Virus record (IMG/VR): IMGVR_UViG_2693429554_000020
Span: 1 to 35,812 of that record
Strand: one strand, 5' to 3'
Length of the DNA: 35,812 bases
Source of the DNA: a virus
Lineage: Duplodnaviria; Heunggongvirae; Uroviricota; Caudoviricetes
The position numbers and the translations under genes are program-made. The notes under the pieces are model-generated. The model worked only from the letters and a program-made list of their open reading frames with translations. It did not search any database and was not told the origin of the DNA. Each line of letters starts with the position of its first letter. Positions within the stretch are counted from its first letter, which is position 1. Shown one piece after another: positions 13,246 through 34,444 of this stretch.

Positions 13246-13932
13246 TTAGAAGTTCAGATTTTTCAGTGCATTCAGTGCAGAGCCCACATCCTCAGCGTCG
13301 CGCAGGGACAGTGCGCCATAGCCCCCGGCCATGAATGCTTTGGCCTGGGTACGGGAGAGTCCGACATCACGCAGGACTCTTTCGATTTTTTTCTGTTCGG
13401 GGATTTCCCCGCGGGCCAGCGCGTTCTTGACGTCGCTTATCCGCGCCTCGTCGTTAGACGGAAACGTCACCAGACTGACTTCCCAGAGGTCGATTTCTTT
13501 CAGCAGAAAGGCTTCTTTCGTCCGGTCGTATTCCCAGTCCTTCAGGACGTACCCAATAGAAAGGCCGGTTAACGAACCGGCCTTCATGTGTGCATGTGCG
13601 CGTTTTGCCAGGGGATCATCATCAATGAGCAACCGCCCCCTGACGTAAAGCCCGACATCGTCTTCCTTCATTTCGGTGTAAACACCGATGGGTTCATCCA
13701 TGCGGTGCTGCCAGAGCAGCGCAGGTAACGCTTTTCTGTCACTCCACGCCCGCAGGGAAGCAGCAAATGCCCCGGACATCACCACATCATCGTGGCTGTC
13801 CTTTACACCAAAGACGGAGCCATACCCTTCAAACTCACCGGAGTCACTGACAGATTTCAGACTCAGCGGTACATCAAGACGTTGTTTCGTCTGCATTGGC
13901 GTTATCCTTCTGCTTACCGGCTTTACTGCCAT
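13246..13932 (-). CDS. Prohead protease (HK97 family)
   Basis: 228-aa ORF between portal and capsid; GYGSVFG...D...GAF region typical of the family. Confidence 0.7.
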   Translation of the reverse strand: MAVKPVSRRITPMQTKQRLDVPLSLKSVSDSGEFEGYGSVFGVKDSHDDVVMSGAFAASLRAWSDRKALPALLWQHRMDEPIGVYTEMKEDDVGLYVRGRLLIDDDPLAKRAHAHMKAGSLTGLSIGYVLKDWEYDRTKEAFLLKEIDLWEVSLVTFPSNDEARISDVKNALARGEIPEQKKIERVLRDVGLSRTQAKAFMAGGYGALSLRDAEDVGSALNALKNLNF

Positions 13933-15115
13933 CGGAGGGTTTCGTGGTCATGTTCATCGGTGTGAGATAGACATCACCACCGGGACGCGGATTCATATCT
14001 TCCAGGTCGCGGCAGTCATTGGGAGAGTAAATTCCCCAGTTGATCCCGGTGGCGTAGGCTTCAAAACGGGACTTCATATCCCCGCGCAGTAACGCCCCGG
14101 CGTTAAATTTGGCGTAATAAACGCCCTGCTTACTTTTTCGTACCAGTCCGGTGTTGATCCGCTGTTCGATGCGGGTCAGATACGGCACCAGTGAATAGTT
14201 GATAAATCCCAGCCCCAGCTCTTCGATATTGTTGAAGGTGGCGCGATCGGTGTTCTGCACCATGTGCAACGGCACCCGGAACAGACGACAGATTTCTTCA
14301 AGCTGAAACTTGCGGGTTTCCAGGAACTGGCTGTCCTCGGCGTTCAGCGCCATCGACTTCCAGTCCAGCCCCATCTCAAGGATCATCGGGCGGTGAGCAT
14401 TGCCAAGCCCGGTGTGACGCTCCTCAAAATCTTTCTTCAGGCGCTCATAAGCCTGATCTGACAGCGTCTGCTCTGTACGCAACACACCCGACGTCACCGC
14501 GCCATTGCTGAACAGTCTGGCCCCGTGCTCTTCGGTCGCTGCCGCCAGCGATATTGCCTCGCGGGCATAGGCGATGGGATTCAGCCCCACCAGTCCGTCC
14601 AGCGTCAGCGTGCGCACATGCCAGATATCCTCCTGGCTCAGTACATCCGTGGAGCCATCCGGGAATGTGACCTGATAGACCGGCTCCCAGCTACTGTTAA
14701 GCTTCGGTACCACACAGCCGGGATCGACGGGCAGCAGTTCAGCCACTTCGCCAAATGCTTTCACTTTGTAGGCGTAAAAGTTTCCCCGCAGGCACAGACA
14801 GGTGACCACCAGCTCCCAGAACTCCTGCGGCGTCATATAGCCATTGGGATGCGTGGAGATCAGCTTATGCAGACGTTCGCCAGTGGCTCTCTGCTTCAGG
14901 CTGCCGTTCAGGTGATACAGGTTGCAGGGCAACATCCCGACCGACTCCGCCAGCACCCTGACACAGGAAAAAACCGCCGTCAGTCGCATGGCCCGCTGGC
15001 TGCTGATCTGCTTTCCGGTATAGGTGTCGTAGGACAACCCGATAGCATCCGCCAGCTCTGCTGGCGTGGTCACCGGTGCGTCACTTTTTCGTTGAAATAA
15101 TCCCGAAAAGAACAC
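13874..15115 (-). CDS. Portal protein (HK97 family)
   Basis: 413-aa ORF downstream of terminase large subunit; size and order. Confidence 0.75.
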   Translation of the reverse strand: MFFSGLFQRKSDAPVTTPAELADAIGLSYDTYTGKQISSQRAMRLTAVFSCVRVLAESVGMLPCNLYHLNGSLKQRATGERLHKLISTHPNGYMTPQEFWELVVTCLCLRGNFYAYKVKAFGEVAELLPVDPGCVVPKLNSSWEPVYQVTFPDGSTDVLSQEDIWHVRTLTLDGLVGLNPIAYAREAISLAAATEEHGARLFSNGAVTSGVLRTEQTLSDQAYERLKKDFEERHTGLGNAHRPMILEMGLDWKSMALNAEDSQFLETRKFQLEEICRLFRVPLHMVQNTDRATFNNIEELGLGFINYSLVPYLTRIEQRINTGLVRKSKQGVYYAKFNAGALLRGDMKSRFEAYATGINWGIYSPNDCRDLEDMNPRPGGDVYLTPMNMTTKPSDGSKAGKQKDNANADETTS

Positions 15116-15308: not shown

Positions 15309-17042
15309 TTAAAGCGAGCGGATCCCATAGGACTCAATGTGGTCAGACAGCGTGTCTTCTTTCTCGTACAGCATGGCTCTGCCAACCGCCATAATCAGCG
15401 CAACTGCACCATCGATTTTGTTTTCCGCCTGCTCTTTGACGGGCTTCACCACATCATCGTTACCCGGAATGGTTTTGCCGACCACGTTGCCGATACACCA
15501 GGTCATGATGGGATTGCCATCATGATGAAAGCGCCCCGATTCAATTGCCGCTTCCAGCTCTTTCATCGGGTCGGACATGTTGGTGTAGTTCTGAATGATA
15601 GTGATGGGGTTCAGGTCTTCATCAGCAAGGTCATGTGACAATCCGGTCGCCCCGAAGGGGTCGATGGGTGACTCACTGACCGGGCTGATTTTGTTCGCCG
15701 CTTTGGCCTCCTCGAGGATGTAGCGATAATCCACCTCCGCACCATCGGTAACGGTCAGAACGCCCATTTCCACCCATTTCTGAAAGCGTTCGGCTGTCCG
15801 TCGATCTTCATTTTTCTCGACGCTGTACACCGTGTCATACGGTACCCAGAAACGCGGGGCCACACTGTAGTAATGCGTTTTACCGTCAATCTCGCGGGTA
15901 TAAAGTCGCGCCATGCTGTTCATATCCAGCTTACGCGCCAGGTCAAAGGCCAGAATGCACGGCTGCCCCTCGAACTGCTCAAGGGTCAGTGATTTATCCT
16001 CGCAGCTCTGCCAGCTCACCTGGTTGAAATACGCCGAACGCGCCGACACCCAGATATTGAGGTGTTTTGTTTTAAAGACGTTTGCCAGACGGGCGTTATT
16101 TTTCGCACGCTGCTGCTGACTTAACAAAAATTCGCGATAAACCGACACGCCAATATTTGGATTGGCTTTTTCCAGCACCTGCGGGTCGGTCCAGTCGTCA
16201 CCTTCATCAACGGTATAGATGATCCCGAACAGTTCATCGTTGGGTACCGACCCGTTGAGCATCTCGATAACTTCCCGCCGCTTGTCGTAGCACGGCCCCT
16301 CAATGTTGTACCCGGCAGTAGTAATGGCCCACATCAGTGGCTGACGTCGCGCCCCCATCCCGGTAAGCATCGTGGTGTAAAGCGCATCGGTGGCGTGCTC
16401 GTGATATTCATCCACCACCGCACAGTGGGGTGATGATCCATCACCGGGGTTACCGATCAGCGGTTCAAACCGCGCGCCATCCTCCGGACGGTTCATGTTT
16501 GAGGCGTTAACCTCAATCCCGAACGCTTCCGTCAGCATGGGTGTGCGTTTACACATCAGTCGCGCCGGGCGAAAGACTTCCCACGCCTGTTTCTCTGTCG
16601 TGGCACCGGAATACACTTCCGCGCCAAACTCGTTATCACAGGCAAAACAATACAGGGCGACACCGGCAGAGATTGCCGATTTGCCGTTCTTACGGGGGAT
16701 TTCGGTATACACCTCCCGGAAGCGGCGCAGCCGGGTACCTTTATTGACCCAGCCAAACGCACAGCAGATCACAAAGAGCTGCCACGGCTCCAGCGTGATG
16801 GGCATCCGTTTGAATGCCCACTCACCCTTGGTATGCGGCAACAGCTGAATAAATTTGGCGGCCCGTTCAGCCAGGTCCTTGTCGAAGCGGTAACGAAACG
16901 ACTTACTTTTTTCCGCCATCAGGTCATCAAGATGGCGCTGGCAGGCCTGAATCACAAACTGGCAGGCCACAATCTTTCCGCGCACGACATCACGGGCATA
17001 CTGATTGGCTGCATTTACGTTGGGGTAAGATTTCCGGCTCAT
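15309..17042 (-). CDS. Terminase large subunit
   Basis: 577-aa ORF with P-loop-like PRKNGKS motif; follows the small subunit gene. Confidence 0.8.
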
Positions 17043-17055
17043 GATTCGATGATTT

Positions 17056-17550
17056 TCAGATTGTCAGAAACGGGTTAGTGGCTTTCTTCTTCCCCGCCAG
17101 GCCAATCAGACGCTGGCGGCTGCTGGGGTCGAGTCCGAGCATTGCCCCCGTGCTGCTCATCTCGGACTCCTGTTCTTTTTTGGCGGTCAGCTCCGGATTT
17201 TTGACCATGCCGCCCATTGCACCGGTGATGGTGTTGCCCTGTCTGGCAATATTTTTCACGGCACGTCGCCAGAATTCATAGGCCACACACCACCGCTCAA
17301 GTACCGCCAGGTCAGTCACGCACAGCAGGCCCTGACCGCAGAGTTCTTTGGTTGTCAGTTGCCACATGATCGTGGCGAGAGGGAGATCTTCTTCAGCGAA
17401 CCACTCCGGTGGCTCAACACCTTTGATGGGCGTAAAAACAGGTTCATCTTTATTCAGGGCTCGCTTGCCGGGGTTTCCGGCCAGCGCCTTGCGCGCCGTT
17501 GGCTTGGGGCGACGCCCGGAACGCCCCGCCGTTCCAGCCATATGCGGCAC
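17056..17550 (-). CDS. Terminase small subunit
   Basis: 164-aa ORF immediately upstream of the large subunit; basic N-terminus. Confidence 0.6.
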
Positions 17551-17666
17551 TCCTGGTTAAATTTCATTTTTCGCGGGTATAAAAAAACGATGGGGCGGGC
17601 AGTCCGGAAGACGTCAGGTCACAGGGATTTGACCCGCCCCTCCCCTCTGGCAATGGGAACTGGTTC
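17551..17666. other. Candidate cos / packaging-recognition region
   Basis: Intergenic between HNH and terS, the HK97-type cos location. Contains GGGGCGGG...CCCGCCCC inverted repeat (17593-17640) with a GACGTC palindrome in the loop and a flanking A7 run. Confidence 0.4.
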
Positions 17667-18017
17667 TTACTTCAGCCGTTCACGGGCCGTCTTCGCCTTA
17701 TGACACGGCCAGCACAGACTCTGCAGGTTACTGTCGGCATCGGTGCCGCCATGCGCTTTGGGAATGATGTGGTCAACGGTTTTCGCCTCACGCACCACAC
17801 CGGCACGCAGACATAACTGACACAGGCCTTTGTCACGCTTCAGCACACGTTCACGGATGGTATCCCACTTCGAACCGTAACCGCGCTGATGACGTGACAG
17901 GCCTGGTTTGTATTGCTTCCAGCCTTCGCTTTTGTGGCTTTCGCAATAGCCTGACGGGTCAGTAGTGGTATTGCGGCAACCGCGAACGCGGCAGGCTTTT
18001 GGTGTACGTGGTGGCAT
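17667..18017 (-). CDS. HNH endonuclease (terminase-associated)
   Basis: CQLC...DHIIPKAHGG...N...CWPCH motif. Start placed at ATG 18017 (MPPRTPK...) with AAGGAAA SD; the track ORF extends to 18104. Confidence 0.75.
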   Translation of the reverse strand: MPPRTPKACRVRGCRNTTTDPSGYCESHKSEGWKQYKPGLSRHQRGYGSKWDTIRERVLKRDKGLCQLCLRAGVVREAKTVDHIIPKAHGGTDADSNLQSLCWPCHKAKTARERLK

Positions 18018-18096
18018 TAATTGTTTCCTTAAGCCATTACGATGCGTCTGAAAATGAGTTAATCTGAAAATTCCTTCACTATGCGAGAGCATGACA

Positions 18097-18396
18097 ATGG
18101 TCATAGGACAAGAAGATCAGAAATGCTGCCCGGCTTGCAATTCAGATGCGACCTGGCAGAACCGTGATACCGCTTGGTTAATTAGATGCCCGATGTGTGA
18201 AACATTTCTCATCAGGAATTCCACCATTGAAATTTTGCGAAGTGACGTTGTGTATCGGACATTAGCTGGTGACCTTCTCAAACAAGAAGGTGGGTGTAAC
18301 TACATGCTTACAAGAGGAAGGCTTGCGAACTTCGCGAAAACCCAGCTCCCAAAATCAAAGTTTCAGGAATACTTCCCTGGTGACAACTACGAATAA
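18097..18396 (+). CDS. Small zinc-ribbon protein (hypothetical passenger gene)
   Basis: ORF 18091..18396 on the strand opposite the late genes; two Cys pairs (CCPAC...CPMC). Start at second ATG preferred on SD spacing. Confidence 0.35.
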   Translation: MVIGQEDQKCCPACNSDATWQNRDTAWLIRCPMCETFLIRNSTIEILRSDVVYRTLAGDLLKQEGGCNYMLTRGRLANFAKTQLPKSKFQEYFPGDNYE

Positions 18397-18436
18397 GCCA
18401 TTACAAAGCCCACCCGCAGATGAGCTTTGTAATGGC
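18397..18436. terminator. Perfect 13-bp inverted repeat hairpin between convergent genes
   Basis: GCCATTACAAAGC (18397-18409) and GCTTTGTAATGGC (18424-18436) with a 14-nt loop, between the zinc-ribbon ORF and the Rz1 3' end. Confidence 0.4.
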
Positions 18437-18693
18437 TACTGTGAGTTGCGTGACGTTTCTATCTTCCTGATACTGGCCTTGTCGATGTTGCACTGGCCCA
18501 GCGCCGAAAGCAGGCTCACATTCAGATCCAGACTGGCCCCATAGGTCAGCGGGTCGGGAATGACTGGCTGGGGCGTTTCAGTGGTCAGGCTTGTTGGCAG
18601 CGGTACCGCCGGAACCGGCACGTAAACTGTTCGCGTACTTCCGCAACCGGTCAGCAGCGGCAGCAGGCACATGACGTGAAGCACAATCATCAT
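18436..18693 (-). CDS. o-spanin (Rz1-like outer-membrane lipoprotein)
   Basis: Alternate-frame ORF overlapping the 3' end of Rz; start at internal Met gives lipobox LLTGC followed by a Pro-rich segment. Confidence 0.55.
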   Translation of the reverse strand: MMIVLHVMCLLPLLTGCGSTRTVYVPVPAVPLPTSLTTETPQPVIPDPLTYGASLDLNVSLLSALGQCNIDKASIRKIETSRNSQ

Positions 18694-18970
18694 CCGCAAC
18701 AGCCACTTTGATATCTTCCTGGGTTCTCTGTGACTCCAGTGCGATCTGCTGTTTTGCATGCTGGTTAGCCTCTATAACTGTATTGATGATTTGCAGTGAT
18801 TGCAGAACGTTACGGGTAATGGCAGTTGCTGATTCAGCATTTCGTACAGCCTCATCAGCACGCTCCTTTTCGTGCTGATATTTGCTGTAGTAATGTCCAG
18901 CAGACCAGATGAAGGAACCAATGACGCTAACAACGAAGGCAACAATAACCAGCTTATATCTCAGCTTCAT
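18578..18970 (-). CDS. i-spanin (Rz-like)
   Basis: 130-aa ORF with N-terminal TM helix, immediately after the endolysin gene, overlapping the Rz1-like ORF. Confidence 0.65.
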   Translation of the reverse strand: MKLRYKLVIVAFVVSVIGSFIWSAGHYYSKYQHEKERADEAVRNAESATAITRNVLQSLQIINTVIEANQHAKQQIALESQRTQEDIKVAVADDDCASRHVPAAAADRLRKYANSLRAGSGGTAANKPDH

Positions 18971-19430
18971 TTACTACCCCACCAGCTTTTTTAAATCGGG
19001 CAATCAGGTCACCGATTTTATGTTCATACTGACCGTAACCTGCACCAGGTAACGACGCCCAGATATTGCTGCAACGGTCGATTGCCTGACGAATACTGCC
19101 GCGGTCAATCATCGGTAAAGCACCACGCTCTTTAATCTGCTGCAGAGCTACAGCGTCCTGGCTTTCTGGAGAAAAATCTTTCAGGCCAAGCTGTTTACGG
19201 TAAGCATCCCACCAGCGTGAAAGAAGCTGGTAACGTCCGGCAGCTGTTGATTTGAGTTTGGGGTTTAGCGTGACAAGTTTGCGAGGGTGATCGGAGTAAT
19301 CAGTGAACAGTTCGCCACCAACAATAACATCATAACCGTGGTTACGTGTCGGTTGTCGCCCGTTATCCGTTCCTTCTGACCATGCCACCATATCCAGGAA
19401 AGCTTTACGCTGGGAATTTAGTGCCTGCAT
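18954..19430 (-). CDS. R: Endolysin, lambda R-type lytic transglycosylase
   Basis: 158-aa protein closely matching lambda R as I recall it (QRKAFLDM.AWSEGTDNGRQ.TRNHGYDVIVGGELFTDYSDHPRKLVTLNPKLKST...). Confidence 0.85.
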   Translation of the reverse strand: MQALNSQRKAFLDMVAWSEGTDNGRQPTRNHGYDVIVGGELFTDYSDHPRKLVTLNPKLKSTAAGRYQLLSRWWDAYRKQLGLKDFSPESQDAVALQQIKERGALPMIDRGSIRQAIDRCSNIWASLPGAGYGQYEHKIGDLIARFKKAGGVVNEAEI

Positions 19431-19845: not shown

Positions 19846-20898
19846 TTATTTCCCCACCAGTTCACTTACCTCTTTCACCGTCTGATTAAACCGCTCTGAC
19901 TCAAGTTCAACACCTAACGCCCGACGCCCCAGCGCCATTGCTGCTTTTATTGTGGAACCGGATCCCATAAAGAAATCAGCAACCAGATCACCAGGTCGAC
20001 TACTGGCATTGATTATTTGCCGGAGCATATCCGCCGGTTTCTCGCACGGATGTTTACCCGGGTAGAACTGAACGGGCTTATGCGTCCAGACATCGGTATA
20101 AGGCACGGAGACTGATACGGAGAAATAGCGCCGGAGAGATTTAAACTCATCCAGCAATTCAGAATATTTGCGATTCAGTGAATCATAAGATGCCACCAGC
20201 TGGTGGTGTGGTTGTTCCAGTTGTTGTTCCTGAAACTTCTCTGCCGCTATACGGGAAAACAGTGCCTGTAACTTCCGATAGTCAGCCTCATTCGGCAACT
20301 GCCACTGACTGGCACCAAACCAGTGGGAAACCATATTTTTCTTACCTGTGGCTTCGGCAATTTGTTTTGCCGTTATACCCAGTTCGGCACGAGCATCCCT
20401 GAAATACGATATCAGCGGTGCCATTATGTGCTGTTTGAGTTCCCTTTCTTTTGCCGCATAGCCGTCACTTTTGCCGCGATATGGCCCCTGGTAATGTTCA
20501 GCAAACAGAACGCGCTCTGTGGCAGGAAAATATGCGCGCAGACTTTCTTTATTACACCCATTCCAACGTCCGGACGGCTTCGCCCAGATGATATGGTTAA
20601 GCACGTTGAAACGTTCACGCATCATGATCTCAATATCAGATGCCAGGCGATGCCCACAGAACAGGTAAAGGCTTCCGGCAGGTTTTAACACCCGCCAGAA
20701 CTGGGCCAGACAGTGGTCCAGCCACTTAAGGTAATCTTCGTCCCCTTTCCACTGATTGTCCCAACCGTTAGGTTTCACCTTGAAGTAAGGCGGATCGGTA
20801 ACAATCAGGTCAATGGAATCATCAGGCAGGGACTGAATAAAATGCAGGCAATCAGCGTTGATTAAATCAACACTGTTTATTTTTACAGTATTTTTCAT
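19846..20898 (-). CDS. DNA methyltransferase, N6-adenine/N4-cytosine type (DPPY motif), orphan
   Basis: 350-aa ORF with IVTDPPY catalytic motif and C-terminal SAM-binding-like FFMGSGST; no adjacent restriction endonuclease gene. Confidence 0.8.
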   Translation of the reverse strand: MKNTVKINSVDLINADCLHFIQSLPDDSIDLIVTDPPYFKVKPNGWDNQWKGDEDYLKWLDHCLAQFWRVLKPAGSLYLFCGHRLASDIEIMMRERFNVLNHIIWAKPSGRWNGCNKESLRAYFPATERVLFAEHYQGPYRGKSDGYAAKERELKQHIMAPLISYFRDARAELGITAKQIAEATGKKNMVSHWFGASQWQLPNEADYRKLQALFSRIAAEKFQEQQLEQPHHQLVASYDSLNRKYSELLDEFKSLRRYFSVSVSVPYTDVWTHKPVQFYPGKHPCEKPADMLRQIINASSRPGDLVADFFMGSGSTIKAAMALGRRALGVELESERFNQTVKEVSELVGK

Positions 20899-21048: not shown

Positions 21049-21251
21049 TTACTGGCAGCGTCTGAATTTATTCCCGTACCCGCCGTTATCCTTCGCCAGA
21101 CCCGCCAGAACTAACTGAGTCAGTATTAACTGGCACCTGGCTTCGCTTACTCCGGTAGTTCTCGTCATCATGCGTGGCGTTACCCACTTGTCAGCAGGTA
21201 AGAAATGAAGGACTGCGGCGGCGGTTTCTGTCATATCTTGCTGTTTTAGCA
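21049..21251 (-). CDS. Small hypothetical protein (late-region)
   Basis: Track ORF 21049..21360; start at ATG 21251 favoured because the upstream part overlaps a terminator-like hairpin and an SD-like GAAGGG precedes it. Confidence 0.3.
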
Positions 21252-21370
21252 TGTCTTTTCCCTTCTGGTTAACATGACATACCAATAACTCTTGTCTAAA
21301 AAGCCAGCAAGATAAAAAGCCAGTATTCACGACCACCAGCGTGTTTACTGTACTGCACAAGGTTTACAGG

Positions 21371-21398
21371 TACAAAAAAACCGCTCAGCGGCGGGTTT
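21371..21398 (-). terminator. Terminator-like hairpin with T7 run (minus strand)
   Basis: Minus strand AAACCCGCCGCTGAGCGG followed by TTTTTTT; lies between the AT-rich cassette and the late genes. Confidence 0.35.
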
Positions 21399-21516
21399 AA
21401 GTTGTGTGGCGAAGTAACCACTCTTAACACGATATAATACTTTTTGCGTACGCGTTAGGATTTTTATAAACTATGCGTCCCCATTCTCGCTAACTTTAGT
21501 CGGTCCTGGAATACAC

Positions 21517-22443
21517 ATGAAAGTTAGAAGCATAGGATTTACAATAAATAACAATAACAAAAATATTAATACCGTTGACGTAATGAATGCTTTTATCAAC
21601 GCATCAAACAGAGAACACAGTCGCACAGACTATACTCGTAAAATTCTCATTTCGGATGTGAATGATTTCTATTATGGATTAGTTGTCACATTCAGAAACC
21701 AAAAAAAGAACTGTAAGTCGCAATTTGTTGATGGTAAATTCCAGCTTAAAATTGAAGATCTTCAAGGAAGTGACAAACTTGCTAATTTCAACTTTTTCTT
21801 AATTAAAAAATCTAATCTTTCTGGTCTCTATATGTATCACCACGGGTCATGCAGTCTGAACACTCTCTTTTCTCATTTAGAAACAATAAGTAATGAATTT
21901 ATCAGAAATCAAAATAAAGAAGAAATAAAAAAACTTGGTGATAAACCAAAACAAAAAGAAGTAACTGCAATAAATAAAAAATACAAAGAAAGACTGACTT
22001 TCAGCCTTATGACAAATAAAAACAACATTCAGAGTGTTTTATGTCAATTCAAAGAGATTAAAAGCACAAGCTTTAAATTTAATTATATAGATTTTAAAGG
22101 TGGACCAATGACTGCGCTTGAACAATTTGTTAACACCACCACAATAGATATGAATTTTAATTCTAGCGACAGAACAAAAGTGCAACAACTATCTCAGAAT
22201 CTTTCAAATATTTATAATTCTATGAGTGGAGTTGCTAAAGCACAGGTTATTGCAGTAAACCATGCAGGAATAGAAAAAACCATTGATTTTATGAACTGCC
22301 CTGTTTTTTTTGAAACATACGATTTCGATATAATTGCCGATAAAGTCAATGGATTGACAAACGATAATTATACAACAAACCCTGTTTTTGATATGATAAA
22401 AGAAGAAATGCTGAACGGGACGAATAAAAATGCCTTTATATGA
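21517..22443 (+). CDS. Hypothetical protein, AT-rich cassette gene 1 (no family recognised)
   Basis: 308-aa ORF in roughly 30% GC DNA with Asn-rich N-terminus (TINNNNKNINT), opposite strand to the flanking phage genes, 14-nt overlap with the next ORF. Confidence 0.6.
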   Translation: MKVRSIGFTINNNNKNINTVDVMNAFINASNREHSRTDYTRKILISDVNDFYYGLVVTFRNQKKNCKSQFVDGKFQLKIEDLQGSDKLANFNFFLIKKSNLSGLYMYHHGSCSLNTLFSHLETISNEFIRNQNKEEIKKLGDKPKQKEVTAINKKYKERLTFSLMTNKNNIQSVLCQFKEIKSTSFKFNYIDFKGGPMTALEQFVNTTTIDMNFNSSDRTKVQQLSQNLSNIYNSMSGVAKAQVIAVNHAGIEKTIDFMNCPVFFETYDFDIIADKVNGLTNDNYTTNPVFDMIKEEMLNGTNKNAFI

Positions 22444-22978
22444 ATGGCTAATAAATAAAAGGTTGAGGTATCAGTACCTTACACTGCTTGCATTCTCGAT
22501 CCTGGCATTGCTTGCACTTTACCTATTGTACAGAAACACACCTAAAGTAAGTGTTAACTTTTTTGATTTTTATCATAAAAACTTACGAGGCTATCTCTTC
22601 TCCGGTTTTATTTCCGTGGGCTCATTTTTATTGAGCCTGCATACCTTTGTCATAATAAATTTACGCGATAAGGTTTTTGCAACTCAGGAATATAAGGAAA
22701 TTTATAGCATTGCCACTGGTATACCTATTGACAAAATCAATGATAGTGCACTTTATAAACCTTTAGACAATTTATCCTCATTTATTAATACATCAATATT
22801 ATGTTCTATCACAACAGCAATTGCACAATTCACTATTGGACTTTCAACTAATTTATATGCATGCTTATTTTGCGTATGGCTTGCAATACTAACGGTATTT
22901 CTTTTATTACATTGCCTCATCATAATCAGACAAAATATTAAAATTTTATTAAAGCAACAGAGAAAAAAAGGGGGGTAA
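22430..22978 (+). CDS. Hypothetical membrane protein, AT-rich cassette gene 2 (about four TM helices)
   Basis: 182-aa ORF with four hydrophobic segments, translationally coupled to gene 1 (ATG inside ...ATGCCTTTATATGA...), basic C-terminus. Confidence 0.6.
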   Translation: MPLYEWLINKRLRYQYLTLLAFSILALLALYLLYRNTPKVSVNFFDFYHKNLRGYLFSGFISVGSFLLSLHTFVIINLRDKVFATQEYKEIYSIATGIPIDKINDSALYKPLDNLSSFINTSILCSITTAIAQFTIGLSTNLYACLFCVWLAILTVFLLLHCLIIIRQNIKILLKQQRKKGG

Positions 22979-22985
22979 TTCCCCC
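22970..22985. terminator. Bidirectional terminator hairpin between convergent cassette gene 2 and Q
   Basis: GGGGGG-TAATT-CCCCC flanked by A8 on the plus side (T-run on minus strand), occupying the 12 bp between the two stop codons. Confidence 0.6.
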
Positions 22986-22990
22986 TAATA

Positions 22991-23332
22991 TTACAACATT
23001 GAAAGCACACCATCCAGAAAACCAAGAGCTGTTTGCAACTCTTTTCTTATTGTCCCATCAGAACACTTCTGCTTCTTTGCAATAGTTCTTAGTGAGATGC
23101 CGATAACAAAATGAGCAATAACCAACTCATACTCTTCGGGCTTATATTTCCGCAATCGCGCAACACAGCTGTCAATCATGATTCCTTCATCATCATCGCA
23201 TTGTTGGCGTGTTTTCTTTCCATGAGGTAGTAAACCTTTAAACCCTGCAGCAACAGGCTGCCAGTCCACACCACTGTTATCTGCTGCAGCCCATGCACCC
23301 CAGCGGTCCAATACTTCATACATATCACGCAT
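22991..23332 (-). CDS. Late-gene antiterminator Q (QuuD-like)
   Basis: MRDMYEVLDRWGAWAA...GFKGLL...CDDDE...CSDG matches the Q-family pattern as recalled; start at ATG 23332 with GGAGAAAG SD (track ORF begins at 23347). Confidence 0.7.
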   Translation of the reverse strand: MRDMYEVLDRWGAWAAADNSGVDWQPVAAGFKGLLPHGKKTRQQCDDDEGIMIDSCVARLRKYKPEEYELVIAHFVIGISLRTIAKKQKCSDGTIRKELQTALGFLDGVLSML

Positions 23333-32964: not shown

Positions 32965-33314
32965 TGGAGCCATACAGCCTCACACTCGATGAGGCCTGTC
33001 ATTTTCTCAAGATATCCAGACCGACTGCCATTAACTGGATACGCACAGGGCGTCTTCAGGCAACACGCAAAGATCCCACTAAGAATAAATCTCCTTACCT
33101 CACAACACGACAAGCCTGCATTGCGGCTCTTCAGTCTCCGCTGCATACTGTCCAGGTGAGCGCGGGTGATGGCATAACAGAGGAAAGAAAATGTCACTCT
33201 TCCGCAGAGGTGAAATATGGTACGCCAGTTTCACATTGCCGAACGGTAAAAGATTTAAACAGTCTCTTGGAACAAAGGACAAAAGGCAGGCGACAGAACT
33301 CCATGACAAGCTAA
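32964..33314 (+). CDS. Excisionase-like HTH protein (AlpA/Xis-type)
   Basis: [33 protein letters not shown] motif; GAGGTG SD 5 nt upstream; 3' end overlaps the integrase start by about 124 nt. Confidence 0.5.
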
Positions 33315-34354
33315 AGGCTGAAGCATGGCGGGTCAGCAAACTTGGTGAAATACCTGATATAACGTTCGAGGAAGCGTGTGTCAGGTGGCTTGAAGAGAAA
33401 GCACATAAAAAATCACTGGACGATGACAAAAGCCGGATCGGATTCTGGCTTCAACATTTCGCAGGAATGCAACTAAGAGACATTACTGAATCAAAAATTT
33501 ATTCAGCAATGCAGAAAATGACGAACCGGCGTCATGAGGAAAACTGGAAACTCAGGGCAGAAGCATGCAGAAAAAAAGGGAAACCTGTTCCAGAATACAC
33601 GCCAAAACCAGCGTCCGTTGCAACGAAGGCTACGCATCTTTCATTTATAAAGGCCCTACTAAGAGCCGCAGAGCGTGAATGGAAAATGCTGGATAAGGCA
33701 CCAATTATTAAAGTGCCTCAACCAAAGAATAAACGGATCCGCTGGCTGGAGCCCCATGAAGCACAAAGGCTGATTGATGAATGTCCGGAGCCATTAAAGT
33801 CTGTTGTTGAATTTGCACTGGCAACAGGCTTAAGACGCTCGAACATCATCAACCTTGAATGGCAACAAATAGATATGCAGCGCCGGGTGGCATGGATAAA
33901 CCCGGAAGAGAGTAAATCAAACCGCGCAATTGGCGTTGCGCTGAATGATACTGCATGTCGCGTATTGAAAAAACAAATCGGGAATCATCACCGTTGGGTA
34001 TTTGTGTACAAGGAAAGCTGTACCAAACCAGACGGAACGAAAGCGCCAACAGTAAGGAAGATGCGGTATGACGCAAACACAGCCTGGAAAGCGGCGCTGA
34101 GACGGGCTGGTATTGATGATTTCAGATTTCACGACTTGAGACACACCTGGGCAAGTTGGCTGGTTCAAGCCGGAGTCCCGTTGTCAGTGTTACAGGAAAT
34201 GGGAGGCTGGGAGTCTATCGAAATGGTTCGTCGATATGCTCACCTTGCACCTAATCACCTTACCGAACACGCACGGCAAATAGACTCGATCCTGAACCCA
34301 TCGGTCCCAAATTTGTCCCAGTCAAAAAATAAGGAAGGTACTAATGATGTGTAA
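33191..34354 (+). CDS. int: Tyrosine integrase
   Basis: 387-aa ORF with arm-binding-like N-terminus ([15 protein letters not shown]) and C-terminal [11 protein letters not shown]...VRRYAHL catalytic motif; ends 15 bp from the tRNA 3' end. Confidence 0.85.
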
Positions 34355-34368
34355 CTTATTGATTTAAA

Positions 34369-34444
34369 TGGTGCCGATAATAGGAGTCGAACCTACGACC
34401 TTCGCATTACGAATGCGCTGCTCTACCAACTGAGCTATATCGGC
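34369..34444 (-). tRNA. thrW: tRNA-Thr (anticodon CGU)
   Basis: 76-nt cloverleaf read on the minus strand: GCCGATATAGCTCAGTTGGTAGAGCAGCGCATTCGTAATGCGAAGGTCGTAGGTTCGACTCCTATTATCGGCACCA; anticodon loop TTCGTAA. Confidence 0.9.

Follow-up and report, generated by a model that had tools for sequence, protein, structure and literature searches.

The virion termini of phage SfI have been mapped by run-off sequencing, in which the reads leave a 10-nt gap relative to the prophage, 5′-TGCCCGCCCC-3′. The SfI authors read this gap as the cos cohesive end, its polarity not being stated, and the cos of the related phage SfV was termed only "postulated" (PMC3636060). In phage HK97, cleavage generates 10-nt 3′ overhangs and the HNH protein gp74 stimulates cos cleavage; whether gp74 cuts one strand was left open by the authors (PMC9410871, PMC11331095). 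The HK97 small terminase (TerS) binds a 15-bp site, from +15 to +29, that consists of a C:G block joined to an A-tract (PMC11331095). N.phiGamma of Bacillus phage Gamma and other HNH enzymes encoded next to terminase genes nick one specific strand, at CG^GT (equivalent to AC^CG); variants cut YG^GTY, CA^GT is an off-target site, and HK97 gp74 has been described as non-specific (PMC3592412). For the Bacillus phages Wbeta and Gamma, a 9-nt cohesive end, CGCCGCCCC, was reported as a 5′ overhang from PhageTerm (PMC8878798).

Here, we examined positions 17551–17666 of a 35,812-nt stretch of DNA, referred to as the window, which lie between two minus-strand genes, an HNH endonuclease gene (stop at 17667) and terS. 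An initial annotation had proposed this region as a cos site. Sequence comparison makes it very probable that the region holds the cos of an SfV/SfI-type lambdoid prophage at tRNA-Thr, equipped with an HK97-type, HNH-dependent packaging module. The site is already known, as cos has been mapped in this very common family of prophages, and only the conserved G-box and the match of the HNH nick site may go beyond existing descriptions. Throughout, cos sequences are given in the minus-strand sense, along which late transcription and packaging proceed. The features of the locus, in window coordinates, are as follows.

13874–15115, minus strand: portal protein, HK97-type (Pfam PF04860, E 4e-108)
15309–17042, minus strand: terL, large terminase with ATPase and nuclease domains (Pfam PF03354 and PF20441)
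17056–17550, minus strand: terS, small terminase of the P27/Terminase_4 family (Pfam PF05119, E 2.6e-21)
17559–17578, minus strand: candidate TerS binding site ACCCGCGAAAAATGAAATTT (cosB equivalent), +14 to +33, unique in the window
17581–17587, minus strand: T7 tract, +5 to +11 from the cut; a T-rich run is present in nearly all relatives
17592–17601, minus strand: predicted 10-nt cohesive end 5′-TGCCCGCCCC-3′ (cosN equivalent), which holds the left repeat arm; assigned by the SfI match
17602–17604, minus strand: GAC anchor (A46 nearly invariant and C47 invariant in alignment A1)
17605–17625, no strand assigned: variable spacer that includes the GACGTC palindrome (17610–17615); columns not conserved in a 14-sequence alignment
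17626–17645, minus strand: G-box GGGGAGGGGCGGGTCAAATC, which holds the right repeat arm (17633–17640); unique in the window and conserved
17667–18104, minus strand: open reading frame of the HNH endonuclease gene, with an N-terminal zinc ribbon (Pfam HNH, E 3.6e-16)

Packaging genes and prophage setting

Open reading frames and Pfam matches place HNH (PF01844), terS (Terminase_4/P27), terL, and portal in this order on one strand, and all four genes are full length in the window. The large terminase is homologous to HK97 gp2 (26% identical, E 3e-30). Both the gene order and the protein families thus agree with the HK97-type packaging module that had been proposed from the HNH–terS–terL arrangement. 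TerS of the window is 98.8% identical to SfV orf1. For the HNH gene, the ATG at 18017 is the probable start and is favored over the mechanical ORF start at 18104; the 116-aa form (351 nt) is the one annotated in SfV, SfI, and SKA5. For terS, the start is likely the ATG at 17541 and not the GTG at 17550, because the latter overlaps an AGGAG Shine–Dalgarno sequence at 17550–17554. With terS starting at 17541, the gap between HNH and terS comes to ∼125 bp.

The 3′ end of terS carries, at 17061–17068, an 8-nt imperfect tandem duplication (TCTGACAA beside TCTGAAAA) relative to SfV and SKA5. This duplication alters and shortens the last TerS residues and abolishes the ATGA stop/start overlap with terL. 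It is probably tolerated, since the same allele is found in 25 of 80 close relatives.

SfI, SfII, SfV, and SfX have a 46-bp att core in common, which is matched exactly (46/46) at 34369–34414, inside a tRNA-Thr(CGT) gene (thrW) at 34369–34444, and the adjoining 387-aa ORF (33191–34354) is presumably the integrase. The window contains one att copy, and the prophage therefore extends beyond its left end. The HNH–cos–terS stretch occurs in 1828 of 5426 complete E. coli genomes.

Several other features of the window were recorded. An AT-rich island at 21200–23200 (GC 0.31–0.39, as against ∼0.5–0.57 around it) has two ORFs on the plus strand, opposite to the late genes, one of 308 aa (21517–22443) and one encoding a hydrophobic 182-aa product (22430–22978). 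Neither ORF gave a Pfam or PADLOC match; the island could be a moron or a defense cassette. Between the HNH and Rz genes (18091–18437) lies a plus-strand ORF of 101 aa with CxxC...CxxC zinc-ribbon motifs, whose similarity to the Lar restriction-alleviation protein is subthreshold, scoring 17.6 bits where 28.6 is required; beyond the ORF comes a perfect 14-bp inverted repeat (18396–18409/18424–18437). A gene for a 350-aa N6/N4 DNA methyltransferase (19846–20898, minus strand; PF01555, E 1e-42) is located just upstream of the holin–lysin–Rz cassette.

Cohesive end and predicted nicks

Comparison with SfI upheld the proposed placement of cos between HNH and terS. The SfI sequence TGCCCGCCCC has a single exact 10/10 match in the window, at 17592–17601 of the minus strand, and 127 of 130 positions are identical between the two phages from −60 to +70 around the junction. 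The SfI record ends in ...GGACTGCCCGCCCC and begins with GTCGTTTTTTT, a break that falls exactly at 17592|17591. In a megablast search of phage records, SfV, SfI, SfII, and SfIV matched at ∼97% identity, and several record ends lie inside the region. The sequence and position of the cohesive end have thus been shown in SfI, the relative with 127/130 identity. Transferred to the window, the cohesive end would comprise the left arm of the inverted repeat plus two bases (17592–17601). From the SfI position, we infer a top-strand nick between 17592 and 17591; from the 10-nt gap in SfI, a bottom-strand nick is predicted between 17601 and 17602, at which the plus strand reads ...GGGCA^GTCC.... Of 80 close relatives from IMG/VR, 76 have an intact cohesive-end core. 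One relative, L064 (IMGVR_UViG_2660238222_000001), has a deletion inside the cohesive end, with GGACTGCCCCCTCG in place of GGACTGCCCGCCCCATCG, and probably represents a dead cos in a decaying prophage.

The ends of the SfI/SfV group would protrude at the 3′ side, because the run-off reads show a gap and not an overlap and because HK97 has 3′ overhangs. This assumed geometry conflicts with the description of Wbeta-type ends as 5′ overhangs (PMC8878798). In phage Gamma, a 3′ overhang would agree both with the CG^GT strand specificity of the phage's HNH nickase and with the HK97 precedent, and the polarity of the Wbeta-type overhang may deserve re-examination. The deposited linear genome of Pantoea phage AH07 (MZ501270.1) is without the 10 nt between GAC and the T-tract: its right end reads ...TGAC and its left end CCTTTTT, where Klebsiella Kp4886-3 reads GAC-CGCCGCCAGT-CCTTTTT. 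The 10 nt missing from AH07 would be consistent with a 3′ overhang that was polished off during library end-repair. The record starts of SfV, SfIV, and Burkholderia vB_E438 were also considered as cut marks and were rejected; they sit in the stretch from the G-box to GAC and were apparently chosen by the annotators.

A mosaic junction at cos, ∼17602–17612, was observed in six loci. Among relatives with 98 to 99% identical TerS, the sequence from ∼CCGGGAC rightwards is nearly invariant, and in the same relatives the spacer, the G-box variant, and the end of the HNH gene fall into several sequence types.

The inverted repeat and competing explanations

The initial annotation had drawn attention to an 8-bp GC inverted repeat with a 30-nt loop, a GACGTC palindrome within that loop, and a flanking A7 tract. 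The repeat is present and perfect, with GGGGCGGG at 17592–17599 pairing with CCCGCCCC at 17633–17640, but its loop measures 33 nt. GACGTC was found at 17610–17615, between the arms, and the A7 tract, which is the T7 tract of the minus strand, at 17581–17587. When the 116-bp region was subjected to 2000 dinucleotide-preserving shuffles, 7.5% of them contained a perfect inverted repeat whose arms were 8 bp or longer and whose loop did not exceed 40 nt, and ∼30 other comparable inverted repeats occur elsewhere in the window. On its own, the inverted repeat is not beyond chance. Single-strand folds gave z-scores of −1.5 as RNA and −1.6 as DNA. Across 14 relatives, we found no covariation of the helix (65% of cells pair, compared with 70% in shuffles), and slid registers pair no worse than the true register of the arms. 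The stem–loop was rejected as a conserved structure on the basis of these fold scores, the lack of covariation, and pairing no better than in shuffled or slid controls. The site is counted as real because it matches an experimentally mapped cos, not because of the repeat. By sequence correspondence, the left arm would be the C-rich cohesive end and the right arm part of the G-box, and their complementarity follows from a G-rich box standing opposite a C-rich overhang.

The repeat and the minus-strand T7 might instead form an intrinsic terminator of the lysis/HNH transcript and have no part in packaging. The minus strand does read GGGGCGGG-33 nt-CCCGCCCC-ATCG-TTTTTTT, and the minimum-free-energy RNA fold contains the repeat stem. 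For a rho-independent terminator, however, a loop of 33 nt is long and the T-run begins 4 nt past the stem; a terminator scan was negative in 17551–17666, no Rfam match was obtained, and the low RNA fold score and the control comparisons given above weigh against this reading as they do against the stem–loop. The stem is broken in relatives with G-box variants. Moreover, the same strand continues straight into terS, terL, and the head genes, and no sigma-70-like promoter was found in 16500–19000. We therefore regard a terminator as highly improbable. A cruciform or hairpin that serves as a structural terminase signal, with GACGTC in its loop as the cleavage site, is scarcely credible. The perfect 8-bp repeat and the central palindrome exist, and in Bacillus phage Gamma the G-box and the cohesive end also share a 7-bp complement, but the SfI ends map to the left arm, at least 9 bp from GACGTC. 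The palindrome is not conserved, being replaced by CGCGCG, CCCGCC, TGACTA, or GCATCC in relatives with the same terS side; these replacements, together with the SfI ends, led us to reject GACGTC as the cut site. The complementarity of the arms is lost in the relative L043, HK97, Mcat32, and others, and shows no covariation.

A further explanation accepts the cos sequence and denies its present use: the prophage may be defective, and the site would then be an inactive relic, inherited without a current packaging function. Prophages of the SfV/SfI type are very common in E. coli and many are cryptic, the deletion within the cohesive end of L064 shows a relative in which the site has been damaged, and the window holds only part of the prophage. 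Against this stand the three cos blocks, which are intact and 127/130 identical to those of a virion-forming phage, and the full-length HNH, terS, terL, and portal genes; the 8-nt duplication in terS is a common allele (25/80 relatives). A relic is thus unlikely.

Conserved blocks and relation to known cos systems

We compared close relatives that have different HNH-side sequences and, in addition, more distant phages: Klebsiella, Pseudomonas VW-6S, Moraxella Mcat32, Psychrobacter Psymv2, Burkholderia vB_E438, and Pantoea AH07, along with HK97, Bacillus phage Gamma, and a Streptomyces phage. The comparison yields three conserved blocks, namely the G-box, the cleavage core, and a downstream block, separated by variable DNA. 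The G-box is conserved in the Klebsiella, Pseudomonas, Moraxella, Psychrobacter, Burkholderia, and Pantoea sequences as well as in HK97, Bacillus Gamma, and the Streptomyces phage. The cut after (G/T)AC lies 30 to 32 bp from the last G of the box in 13 of 15 measured sequences, the other two readings, 34 and 36, being due to how the box was delimited; in the window, the cleavage core starts 31 bp after the last G of the G-run. The same architecture was not seen in the HNH–terS spacer of staphylococcal phage phiSa2wa_st5. Because its spacing is fixed at three helical turns and it is conserved across phyla, the G-box could be where the HNH/TerL nuclease docks, or it could signal termination in the manner of cosQ when read at the portal. 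We found no published description of the G-box in the literature covered, outside of which lie the SfV and HK97 genome papers and the 2014 HNH-packaging paper.

A pattern scan of GTDB species representatives with GGGGCGGGTCRAA-N23-25-GACCGCC returned 55 matches, compared with ∼6 to 7 expected at uniform base composition, a rough estimate. At least 18 of these have an HNH homolog directly upstream and 17 have TerS or TerL downstream; the 14 with both are the confirmed count. Flanked matches come from Proteus, Xenorhabdus, Citrobacter, Klebsiella, Enterobacter, Martelella, a Burkholderiales MAG, and Ruminococcaceae and Oscillospiraceae MAGs, and many of the other matches, located inside genes of GC-rich genomes, look like chance. 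By contrast, the matches in six Pseudomonas genomes appear genuine; all six have nearly the same element, GGGGGGCGGGTCGAAAGTCTGGAAGG...TAGACCGCCTCCGACCCC...TTTTTT, laid out as G-box, spacer, GACCGCC, and T-tract. Flanking homologs were not found at these six loci with three HNH and terminase queries, and the elements may be cos sites of a more divergent packaging module.

In the downstream block, the CCGCGAAA core is kept across relatives whose TerS is only 33 to 51% identical. Among genomes that have the G-box and the GAC core in common, the block keeps the window sequence at TerS identities of 75% or more and is of other types at 25 to 30%, while HNH identity stays at 57 to 71% as the block switches type. 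The window reads CCCGCG and then A5 at +15 to +25, a position that matches the HK97 TerS site. This conservation, the co-variation with TerS type, and the positional analogy to HK97 make 17559–17578 a probable small-terminase (cosB-like) site. TerL identity tracks TerS identity in the same genomes, and the downstream block could therefore belong to either protein. BLASTP detected no similarity of TerS to HK97 gp1 or to Gamma TerS, and the analogy with the HK97 TerS site is therefore positional only.

The HNH protein of the window is 38% identical to N.phiGamma (E 4e-17) across the zinc ribbon and the HNH domain. Its putative nick site is GCA^GTC, with the equivalents GCG^GTC in HK97 and GCG^GTA in Gamma, and matches the CG^GT/RAC^CR class of terminase-adjacent HNH nickases. 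Because its homolog N.phiGamma has CG^GT specificity, the HNH protein would be the enzyme that makes the bottom-strand nick at GCA^GTC. We tentatively extend this to other HNH-type cos sites: the G-box, GGGG(A)GGGGCGGG-TCAAA, at 31 ± 1 bp upstream of (G/T)AC^YG, is possibly an undescribed essential subsite, with HNH, not TerL, nicking the bottom strand at RAC^YG.

In the mechanism that we propose, the site would have three parts: the G-box GGGGAGGGGCGGGTCAAATC (17645 to 17626), the core GAC^TGCCCGCCCC^ATCG, and T7 followed by ACCCGCGAAAAATGAAATTT. The small terminase would bind the downstream block on concatemeric DNA, after which the large terminase and the HNH protein would introduce two nicks, 10 nt apart. 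HNH would nick the bottom strand at the GAC anchor (17601/17602), and TerL would nick the top strand 10 nt farther downstream (17592/17591). The outcome would be 10-nt 3′-protruding cohesive ends, 5′-TGCCCGCCCC-3′, and packaging would run from the terS end to the next cos.

Locating cos in the window is of help only in annotation: it lets the genome ends be set, aids in predicting which sequences satellites or transduction could make use of, and offers a linear starting point for comparing genomes. Of greater use is what the comparison itself yields, a model of HNH-type cos sites at base resolution with three parts, the G-box, GAC^N10^, and a block that covaries with TerS. It also offers a concrete, testable assignment of the two nicks to HNH and TerL, which the HK97 papers left open (PMC11331095).

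Among known systems, the cos of SfI, SfV, SfII, and SfIV is the same site, with an identical 10-nt TGCCCGCCCC and flanking HNH, terS, and terL genes at ∼97% DNA identity. The window differs from SfI by three substitutions, which include A for G at +1, and from the SfV-type cos region by its 8-nt terS 3′ duplication allele. The cos of phage lambda is analogous in function. It is organized as cosQ–cosN–cosB, with an upstream element ∼30 bp before the nick, a staggered nick, and a downstream small-terminase site, a tripartite layout like that of the window. Lambda cos has a 12-nt 5′ overhang, no HNH partner, and multiple gpNu1 R sites with IHF, and it has no sequence similarity to the window site, which has a 10-nt core of other sequence, an adjacent HNH gene, and a probable 3′ polarity; a lambda-type cos was therefore rejected.

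HK97 cos likewise lies between the genes for the HNH protein gp74 and TerS gp1, next to a homologous TerL, gp2. A G-run and then ATCAAATC stand 32 bp before GAC|, the G-box reading GGGGGGGGGATCAAATC; the HK97 record closes with GAC|CGCCGCCAAA|, whose final 10 nt are in register with the overhang predicted in the window; and a C:G block followed by an A/T tract is found at ∼+15 to +30. HK97 differs in its overhang sequence, CGCCGCCAAA, in having no T7 at +5 to +11, and in its TerS gp1, which has no BLAST similarity to the TerS of the window and no Pfam family. Unlike the HNH protein of the window, gp74 is without an N-terminal zinc ribbon (PMC3592412).

The Bacillus phages Wbeta and Gamma have an almost identical G-box, GGGTAGGGGCGGGTCGAAAA, with the same 31-bp spacing between the final G of its G-run and AC|, and their cohesive end CGCCGCCCC starts right after AC, in register with that of the window. 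Gamma HNH is 38% identical, and Gamma TerS is annotated as P27 family. These phages differ from the window in their 9-nt end, a TerS that is dissimilar by BLAST, another type of downstream block, and a Gram-positive host. The GAC|N10| register is common to the window, HK97, AH07, and Gamma.
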